Of a stretch of 64,000 nucleotides of DNA, positions 7,833 to 10,800 are shown in pieces. The stretch comes from Escherichia coli (GTDB taxonomy: Bacteria > Pseudomonadota > Gammaproteobacteria > Enterobacterales > Enterobacteriaceae). The DNA is taken from NCBI RefSeq assembly GCF_029227855.1, contig NZ_CP074356.1. One strand, given 5' to 3'. Within the stretch, counting starts at the first letter, position 1. Each line of letters starts with the position of its first letter. Made by a program: the position numbers.

Positions 7833-10800
7833 TAGTTTGTAAACCGTCCGGCACTCAATCGCCAAAAAGAAATAAATATCCTCCGGCATAGCCGGAGGTT
7901 TTTCAAATGCGCCTATAAGGCTCTCTTACCAGCCGCGCCCTAACAGGCGCACACGATCTGACATTTGCATCCAACTTCGTTACTTACGGCCCGTAAACGG
8001 GCTGCCCGGATAGGGAATCGATAACTGCTCTCCCATTTTATCCTCTTCAAGCTGGTGCTTTATGTAATCCTGTATCTTCGCCGTGTTCTTACCCACTGTA
8101 TCGACGTAGTACCCTCTGCACCAGAACTCCCTGTTCCTGTATTTGAATTTCAAATCACCAAACTGCTCGTAAAGCATCAGACTGCTTTTCCCTTTCAGAT
8201 ATCCCATAAACCCGGATACGCTCATTTTGTGCGGGATCTCCACAAGCATATGGATATGATCTGCACAGCATTCAGCTTCCAGAATCCGTACGCTTTTCCA
8301 CTCACACAGCTTTCTCAAAATACTGCCTATTGCTCTACGCTTCTCTCTGTAGAACACCTGTCTTCGGTATTTTGGCGCAAAGACTATGTGATATTTACAG
8401 TTCCATCGGGTGTGCGCTAAGCTCTTTTCGTTCCCCATTGGGACCCCCTTTTGATTTCTTGTTTGACACTTGCAGTTGCCAGACCGCAAAGTGTTTTAAC
8501 AAATCAAAAGGGGTTTTAATAACTGGCTCAAAGCTGAAAGCTTTCCGGAACCCCCAGCCTAGCTGGGGGTTTTCTGTGCACAAAAAAGCCAGCAGATAAT
8601 CACTGCTGGCGTGGCGATTAACACCAATACTCAGTCACACATGATGTCCGCAAATCAGTAGCCAGAATGACTCCCCTCCCACTGCATCAGTTCTTCAAGC
8701 ATGGTTAATCGTTGTGGGACGCTTAACCAACGCAACCAGCACAACTTCGCTGTCGCGGTAAAATAGTGCTGATAAAACTGACGCATGGGGCACCTCCTTG
8801 CTTCATCGTTAGGAATTATTGACTTAATATAGGGAAAATAAAATTGCTGACTTTTGCGCAGGAGTTCCCCTTTTATGCCATCTGCTCGTCTGCAACAACA
8901 GTTCATCCGCCTGTGGCAATGCTGCGAGGGTAAATCGCAGGACACGACGCTCAACGAACTGGCAGCGTTATTGAGCTGCTCGCGTCGTCATATGCGCACC
9001 CTGCTCAACACCATGCAGGATCGCGGCTGGCTGACGTGGGAAGCGGAAGTCGGGCGCGGCAAACGCTCGCGTCTGACATTCCTCTATACCGGGCTGGCGC
9101 TTCAGCAACAGCGAGCAGAGGACCTGCTGGAGCAGGATCGTATCGATCAACTGGTGCAACTGGTTGGCGACAAAGCGGCCGTGCGGCAAATGTTAGTTTC
9201 TCATCTGGGCCGTAGCTTCCGCCAGGGGCGGCACATCCTGCGCGTTCTCTACTATCGTCCGTTGCGTAATCTGCTGCCCGGCAGTGCATTGCGTCGTTCC
9301 GAAACCCATATCGCCCGGCAAATCTTCAGTTCGCTAACGCGCATAAATGAGGAAAATGGGGAACTGGAAGCGGACATCGCCCACCACTGGCAGCAAATTT
9401 CACCGCTTCACTGGCGTTTCTTTTTGCGTCCAGGAGTCCATTTTCATCATGGTCGTGAACTGGAAATGGACGATGTGATCGCCTCTTTAAAACGAATCAA
9501 TACGCTGCCGCTCTATTCGCATATTGCTGACATTGTGTCGCCGACGCCCTGGACGCTGGATATCCATCTCACGCAACCGGACCGCTGGTTACCGTTACTG
9601 CTGGGGCAAGTTCCGGCGATGATCCTGCCGCGCGAATGGGAAACCCTCAGTGACTTTGCCAGTCATCCCCTCGGCACCGGTCCGTATGCGGTGATCCGCA
9701 ACAGCACCAATCAACTGAAAATTCAGGCATTCGATGACTTCTTCGGTTACCGGGCATTAATCGACGAAGTTAACGTCTGGGTTCTGCCGGAAATTGCCGA
9801 CGAGCCAGCCGGAGGGCTGATGCTAAAAGGGCCACAGGGCGAGGAAAAAGAGATTGAAAGCCGCCTGGAGGAAGGTTGCTACTATTTACTGTTCGACAGC
9901 CGCACCCATCGCGGGGCGAATCAGCAAGTCAGGGACTGGGTAAGCTATGTGCTTTCTCCAACTAATCTGGTCTATTTCGCTGAGGAACAGTACCAGCAAC
10001 TGTGGTTCCCGGCTTATGGACTGCTCCCACGTTGGCACCATGCTCGTCCGACACATTGCGAAAAACCCGCCGGGCTGGAAAGCCTCACCCTGACCTTTTA
10101 TCAGGATCATATTGAGCATCGAGTGATTGCCGGGATCATGCAGCAGATTCTGGCAAGTCACCAGGTCACGCTGGAAATCAAAGAGATCAGCTACGATCAG
10201 TGGCATGAAGGAGAGATCGAGAGCGATATCTGGCTTAACAGCGCCAACTTTACGCTGCCGCTGGATTTTTCGCTGTTCGCGCACCTGTGCGAGGTGCCGC
10301 TGCTCCAACACTGTATTCCGATCGACTGGCAAGCCGACGCCGCCCGCTGGCGCAATGGCGAAATGAATCTGGCGAACTGGTGCCAGCAACTGGTCGCCAG
10401 TAAAGCAATGGTGCCACTTATCCACCACTGGCTGATCATTCAGGGGCAACGCAGTATGCGCGGTCTGCGTATGAACACCCTCGGCTGGTTCGATTTTAAA
10501 TCAGCGTGGTTTGCGCCGCCGGATCCAGAGTAGCTTGTGCCTTTTGGCGGTCATGAGCGCGTTTTTTATATTCAGACGGAATGAATAAAATACATTACTT
10601 TTATATTTTCTCTGTTTTATGCATCGTCTGATTAGAGTCGCAAATAAGATTAAAGAAGGGGCAATCCAGCCCCTCTTTCATATTCTGAGTTAATCAATAA
10701 CGGCGCAGCCTAGCCGTGTTCTGGCCGGAAAGGTCAGCTTTTTCAGGTTAACCTCGCGCAGGTCAGTCATACCAACGGCTATTGTTCGTTTCAGCATTGC

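Follow-up and report, generated by a model that had tools for sequence, protein, structure and literature searches.

The setA-less leuD–sgrS interval of an Escherichia coli genome very probably reflects an old deletion and a far later IS200C insertion

The window analysed here is a stretch of 64,000 nucleotides from Escherichia coli (contig NZ_CP074356.1), and the part that concerns us extends from the leu genes to sgrR. The leuD stop (position 7835) forms the left edge of an interval that holds a short spacer, a copy of IS200C and the small RNA gene sgrS. Overall, the window is collinear with K-12 except for setA, a segment carrying espY2 and two IS copies, and the closest genome overall is that of JNEC-KY178 (99.8%). 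The features are the following, with the strand given where one was assigned:

4722–5816, plus strand: leuB, an open reading frame
5819–7219, plus strand: leuC, an open reading frame
7230–7835, plus strand: leuD, the final gene of leuABCD, a 201-residue open reading frame annotated as leuD in JNEC-KY178 and CFT073
7836–7870: setA-less spacer of 35–36 bp, from the leuD stop to the T-run of the sgrS terminator
7871–8582, minus strand: a 712-bp copy of IS200C, whose ends are uncertain by 1–2 nt
7880–7898: subterminal hairpin of the IS200 right end, from a terminator scan
7980–8438, minus strand: tnpA, intact, for a Y1 (HUH) transposase of 152 residues (NF033573)
8448–8571, minus strand: IS200 left end, with a terminator hairpin (8549–8571) and a 5’UTR stem-loop hiding the tnpA ribosome-binding site (Rfam RF01405, STnc490; for their roles see PMC4513863)
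8582–8807, minus strand: sgrS small RNA, complete (Rfam RF00534)
8655–8786, minus strand: sgrT, an intact 43-residue coding sequence within sgrS, annotated as sgrT (WP_001248769.1) in JNEC-KY178, with the translation seen in the open reading frame
8875–10533, plus strand: sgrR, intact, the activator divergent from sgrS, an open reading frame annotated as sgrR in JNEC-KY178 and CFT073
21241–21952, plus strand: a second complete IS200C copy of 712 bp between araD and polB, inverted relative to the copy at 7871–8582

The element next to leuD has the characteristics of the IS200 group, namely a Y1 transposase of about 150 residues, subterminal hairpins at both ends and no terminal inverted repeats. 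Its TnpA (152 residues) scores 140.5 bits against the NCBIfam model NF033573 (transpos_IS200; cut-off 55), shows the HIH motif and the tyrosine-bearing RGYYVD stretch, and is identical at 151 of 152 positions to the common IS200C protein (the strain 405 copy, annotated WP_000526135.1), the single substitution being P70H. The left-end hairpin, AACCCCCAGCTAGGCTGGGGGTT, is an exact motif match at 8549–8571, which corresponds to nucleotides 12–34 counted from 8582. The right-end hairpin (7880–7898) has an 8-bp stem with seven GC pairs and is followed by TTTTTC on the plus strand, so that hairpin and T5 run face leuD like an intrinsic terminator placed 45 nt past its stop. IS200C is multicopy: when the IS was searched together with its flanks, 19,526 matching places were obtained across the E. 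coli genomes, with up to 37 in a single genome, and copies at unrelated sites (e.g., rho–wecA and crcB–cspE) are 98–99% identical to the one described here.

The resemblance to the IS200 of Salmonella (PMC4513863, PMC5435999) extends to the left-end terminator hairpin at nucleotides 12–34, the 5’UTR stem-loop, the single 152-residue Y1 transposase, the right-end hairpin and the absence of both terminal inverted repeats and target duplication. The Salmonella element, however, is 707 bp long, whereas the one in the window is the 712-bp E. coli variant IS200C. The STnc490 model (Rfam RF01405) matches the tnpA-sense strand (8448–8571, minus; 144.6 bits, E = 1.3e-30), whereas STnc490/art200 has been described as antisense to the tnpA 5’UTR (PMC4513863); it would thus seem that the model recognises the structure of the left end and does not define the small RNA’s strand.

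Beyond the insertion, all the elements expected of an SgrS locus were found: a covariance match to RF00534 (228.2 bits, E = 3e-65, against a gathering score of 37; 8581–8807, minus strand, model positions 1–232), the sgrT reading frame, the base-pairing region with its conserved motif ACACCAATACTCAGTCACACATGATG, a terminator and the divergent sgrR. The terminator scan places the terminator hairpin at 8588–8610, followed by six U, the last of which, at 8582, is supplied by the end of the IS; the K-12 terminator, in contrast, has eight. SgrR, SgrS and SgrT are thus intact, with an SgrS terminator that retains six U.

In K-12 the gene order is sgrR, sgrS–sgrT, setA and leuD, in agreement with the original prediction, which placed setA between sgrS and leuD in that strain. 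The sgrS–setA operon of K-12 (b4577, b0070) shares with the window the sgrR–sgrS–sgrT module, the flanking leuD and thiB, and an identical SgrS base-pairing region. The two differ in that K-12 carries a 1,179-bp setA, co-transcribed with sgrS through read-through of the terminator (PMC4509938; the co-transcription had also been stated in the original prediction), and the window carries none. No SetA reading frame lies directly 3’ of the sgrS terminator here, and a tblastn search with K-12 SetA did not find setA anywhere in the 64-kb window (best E = 1.2). The prediction that setA is missing and that an IS200 copy lies in the interval was therefore borne out, with leuD ending at 7835, the IS at 7871–8582 and sgrS at 8582–8807. 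The IS itself had been drawn as 710 bp at 7872–8581; its presence stands, and its limits shift by 1–2 nt within an A/T run.

To place this arrangement among other genomes, the flanks of the window were joined without the IS and searched against 5,426 complete E. coli genomes. The joined flanks were contiguous in 2,159 genomes and matched in two separate places in the rest (2,159 × 1 + 3,240 × 2 = 8,639 places), so that the locus behaves as a clean two-state polymorphism, with setA in about 60% of genomes and without it in about 40%. The setA gene itself was found in 3,241 of the 5,426 genomes. Since this number is nearly that of the genomes in which leuD and sgrS lie apart (3,240), a second setA copy elsewhere in the source genome is very unlikely, as judged from these genome counts. 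Only 13 of the 2,159 setA-less genomes, including four CFT073 assemblies and JNEC-KY178, have the IS at the leuD–sgrS site, which leaves about 2,146 that share the identical junction without it.

These numbers bear directly on whether the IS removed setA from this lineage, be it by itself or through recombination with another IS200 copy; an IS-associated deletion was one of the two explanations put forward at the outset. In favour of this idea, the IS occupies the position held by setA in K-12, and the window contains a second IS200C copy 12.7 kb away, in inverted orientation. The idea is refuted by the IS-free genomes, which carry the same setA-less junction, and by the empty sites, which match the flanks. 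In EC16, whose flanks are 99.7% identical to those of the window, and in O157:H7, the IS-free site reads ...CAATCGCCAAAAAGAAAAAAGCCAGCAG... and aligns to the window flanks base for base, with no flanking base duplicated or lost at the IS. From the leuD stop to the SgrS base-pairing motif there are 785 bp in the window and 73 bp without the IS in both of these genomes, a difference of 712 bp, and excising the IS in silico gives the exact empty site. With the limits 7871–8582, removal of these 712 bp restores the EC16 site exactly, the remaining ambiguity being that of the A/T run (the A6 run of the EC16 empty site is divided in the window into one A on the left and five on the right, and there is no target-site duplication). 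Neither sign of an adjacent deletion caused by the IS was seen, that is, IS-free relatives that keep the DNA or a junction that lacks bases. Collinearity of the window with K-12, interrupted only at setA, at the segment with espY2 and at the two copies of the IS, also speaks against such a deletion, as does the occurrence of the setA-less junction in other Escherichia species (see below). Precise excision as the source of the IS-free junctions is implausible for 2,146 genomes over several species, and overall we regard removal of setA by the IS as extremely improbable.

The same survey speaks to a technical explanation, a repeat-induced collapse at the IS that dropped setA from the assembly. 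IS200 is indeed multicopy, with the up to 37 matching places per genome noted above, yet 13 independently finished complete genomes, four of them separate CFT073 assemblies, show the same arrangement, and its IS-free version is present in more than 2,000 complete genomes; an artefact of this kind is extremely unlikely.

We then turned to the state of the locus outside E. coli, using SgrR as the anchor for an outgroup scan of 80 loci from contigs representing one genome per species. In 76 of these, setA is found in the interval from sgrS to leuD and its product has 75–89% amino-acid identity; they include loci from Citrobacter, Salmonella, Enterobacter, Klebsiella, Kluyvera and Raoultella. The gene is missing only from E. 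albertii, E. whittamii and Escherichia sp. E1V33, and the one remaining locus, that of Escherichia sp. MOD1-EC7003, has a setA whose product is 99% identical to that of K-12. The junction in E. albertii, E. whittamii and E1V33, TAG TTTGTAC.CCG.CCG..CTCAATCG.CAAAAAGAAAAAAGCCAGCAG, is homologous to that of the window, and the homologous setA-less junction is likewise found in EC16, O157:H7 and CFT073. In K-12 and the 76 outgroup loci, about 1.2–1.3 kb including setA stands in place of the spacer. When the 35-bp spacer was compared with the sgrS–setA and setA–leuD spacers of K-12 and Citrobacter, resemblance was limited to Citrobacter and to the bases that immediately follow the terminator (AAAAGAAAAAAGCC).

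The synteny of setA in 76 of 80 outgroup loci argues that this is its ancestral location in the Enterobacteriaceae and that its absence is derived, and the occurrence of one junction in three other Escherichia species argues that the haplotype is old and long predates the IS. Taken together, the sequence comparisons identify the setA-less state as what is evidently one old deletion haplotype, with a net loss of about 1.22 kb, common to several Escherichia species and E. coli lineages. The second explanation offered at the outset, that the lineage never had setA, is therefore nearer the truth than an IS-associated deletion, yet not literally right: absence at the level of the lineage holds, whereas “never” does not, as the outgroup synteny makes the absence derived.

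A stronger version of this explanation has been published. González-Alba et al. 2019 (PMC6896753) described setA as acquired by, and specific to, the A/B1 sublineage, from which it would follow that the lineage studied here never had the gene and that setA is a new gene gained only by E. coli A/B1. Their pattern of presence and absence across E. coli is like ours (3,241 genomes with setA and 2,159 without), CFT073 and O157:H7 are among the setA-less genomes, and the absence of the gene from three other Escherichia species fits as well. So does the comparison of K-12 with MOD1-EC7003, in which setA is 98.5% and sgrS 98.7% identical but the flanks only 92–95.5%, a profile suggesting that the segment was transferred by recombination. 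The position of setA, however, is exactly the same in 76 of 80 Enterobacteriaceae loci, which makes the gene ancestral and its absence derived. K-12 setA is also somewhat more diverged, and not less, at the DNA level from Salmonella and Citrobacter (77–78% identity) than the neighbouring leu genes are (82–85%) and so gives no sign of having come recently from a foreign source. What A/B1 regained would at most be the ancestral Escherichia allele, via homologous recombination. We therefore consider a de novo gain rather unlikely and read the E. coli pattern, which the published account takes as an A/B1 gain, as better described by the old deletion haplotype; A/B1 may either have recovered setA through recombination or never have lost it. 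The setA data are thus consistent with the published A/B1 distribution and point to an ancestral allele that was regained or retained, and not to a newly acquired gene.

The deletion haplotype is not confined to the missing gene. Over its 3’ approximately 110 nt (8588–8692, minus strand), which comprise the terminator and the SgrT C-terminus, the sgrS of the window differs from that of K-12 at 22 positions. These differences sort by setA state: the K-12 variants are common to K-12 and MOD1-EC7003 and absent from O157:H7, CFT073 and E. albertii. The ptsG base-pairing region of sgrS, in contrast, is identical in all the genomes compared. K-12 sgrS is 89.8% identical to that of O157:H7 or CFT073, against 95–98% for the flanks, a value that agrees with the 88% reported for sgrS by Horler and Vanderpool (their 2009 paper gives setA synteny in a figure, and its text names no setA-less genomes). 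That setA and sgrS are closer than their flanks between K-12 and MOD1-EC7003, and that sgrS is more distant than its flanks between K-12 and O157:H7, indicates that the haplotypes have probably moved between lineages by homologous recombination.

We conclude that the interval was very probably made by two events of very different age, an old deletion of setA and a far later insertion of IS200C. In the first, about 1.22 kb including setA would have been lost, so that only the 35–36-bp spacer separates the leuD stop from the sgrS terminator; about 40% of the complete E. coli genomes, CFT073 and O157:H7 included, now carry this haplotype. In the second, the 712-bp IS200C would have entered the T-run just past the sgrS terminator hairpin, in the orientation of sgrS, with neither target duplication nor loss of flanking DNA.

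Insertions of the same type are found in other genomes. Ten of the 13 IS-bearing genomes were compared and have the IS at the same site and in the same orientation, with a right-end junction that differs by one A and an IS that differs by 2–10 nt. The CFT073 locus (NC_004431.1, 81.6–82.9 kb) matches the window in its IS200C, the site and orientation of the insertion, the setA-less spacer and sgrS/sgrT/sgrR (98.2% over 1.3 kb), and differs by one A fewer at the right-end junction, 2 nt in the IS and the lack of the espY2 segment between sgrR and thiB. Both this CFT073-type insertion and the distribution of setA are already on public record.

The choice of site may have a simple basis. In all six IS200C copies examined, the left end lies directly after the T-run of an intrinsic terminator, and the element is oriented like the gene or RNA that ends there; the six terminators are those of sgrS, rho, cspE, polA, a lyxose isomerase gene and araD. 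The last is that of the second copy in the window (21241–21952), whose left end directly adjoins the T6 run of the terminator hairpin of araD (AACCAGGCTATAATCAAGCCTGGTTTTTT, window positions 21219–21241), and K-12 has no IS at the corresponding araD–polB site. A preprint has reported that terminator-like sequences are enriched upstream of IS200/IS605 elements (10.1101/2025.07.22.666184), and our six copies suggest that terminators are a preferred target of IS200C. Since all six lie at terminators, and the sgrS terminator is the nearest target at this locus, the occupation of the setA position by the IS looks like a coincidence.

We put forward two broader proposals, both as tentative ideas to which we would give a little less than even chances. 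The presence and absence of setA may represent two deep haplotypes, comprising setA and the 3’ end of sgrS, that cross Escherichia species boundaries, and A/B1 may owe its ancestral sgrS–setA cassette to homologous recombination with another Escherichia lineage, as a regain and not as the gain of a new gene. The second proposal is that IS200C targets the T-runs of intrinsic terminators, including those of small RNAs, with the sgrS terminator as a recurrent landing site.

The insertion would have little effect on its surroundings, and from its sequence this IS200 copy would pass for a textbook case of a neutral intergenic insertion. The bases 3’ of the six U of SgrS are changed by the IS from CUUUUU to GUGCAC. 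Nucleotides 12–34 of the IS200 left end form a hairpin that acts as a bidirectional terminator (PMC4513863), and sgrS read-through transcripts would reach this hairpin 11 nt further on. At the other end, the right-end hairpin with its T5 run may contribute to termination of transcription from the leu operon. Almost no expression is expected from the IS itself.

As to the missing gene, we infer that the strain, like the whole haplotype class, is without the SetA branch of the glucose-phosphate stress response, and that in setA-less lineages SgrR and SgrS act without SetA. The suggestion that the output of this response is changed thus stands as regards the missing SetA; the change is specific neither to this strain nor to the IS, being shared by about 40% of E. 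coli. Two practical points follow for the reading of such loci: the wrong inference that an IS has destroyed part of the glucose-phosphate stress regulon is averted, and work on the K-12 sgrS–setA operon is not transferable to the approximately 40% of E. coli genomes without setA, the CFT073 and O157:H7 lineages among them. The outgroup synteny also slightly revises the published view of a gain in A/B1, in that setA is ancestral at the site and its absence derived.

Three further observations concern the surroundings of the interval. Between sgrR and the thiB TPP riboswitch, the window has a segment of some 1 kb (positions 10528–11538) that is absent from K-12 and CFT073. This segment contains a 189-residue open reading frame (10763–11332, minus strand) which is the type III secretion effector EspY2 by annotation in JNEC-KY178, EC16 and O157:H7, and for which an NCBIfam search returned no match. 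The 3’ part of sgrR (10001–10400, plus strand), beside this segment, is 89% identical to K-12, against 97–99% over the preceding 800 bp, and may mark a second recombination boundary. Finally, the last approximately 230 bp of leuD (7600–7835, plus strand) are about 88–91% identical to K-12, O157:H7 and E. albertii, against 95–98% upstream. The leuD 3’ end may thus be a recombination mosaic adjoining the junction; its variability does not sort by setA state, and we therefore did not count it in the haplotype block.
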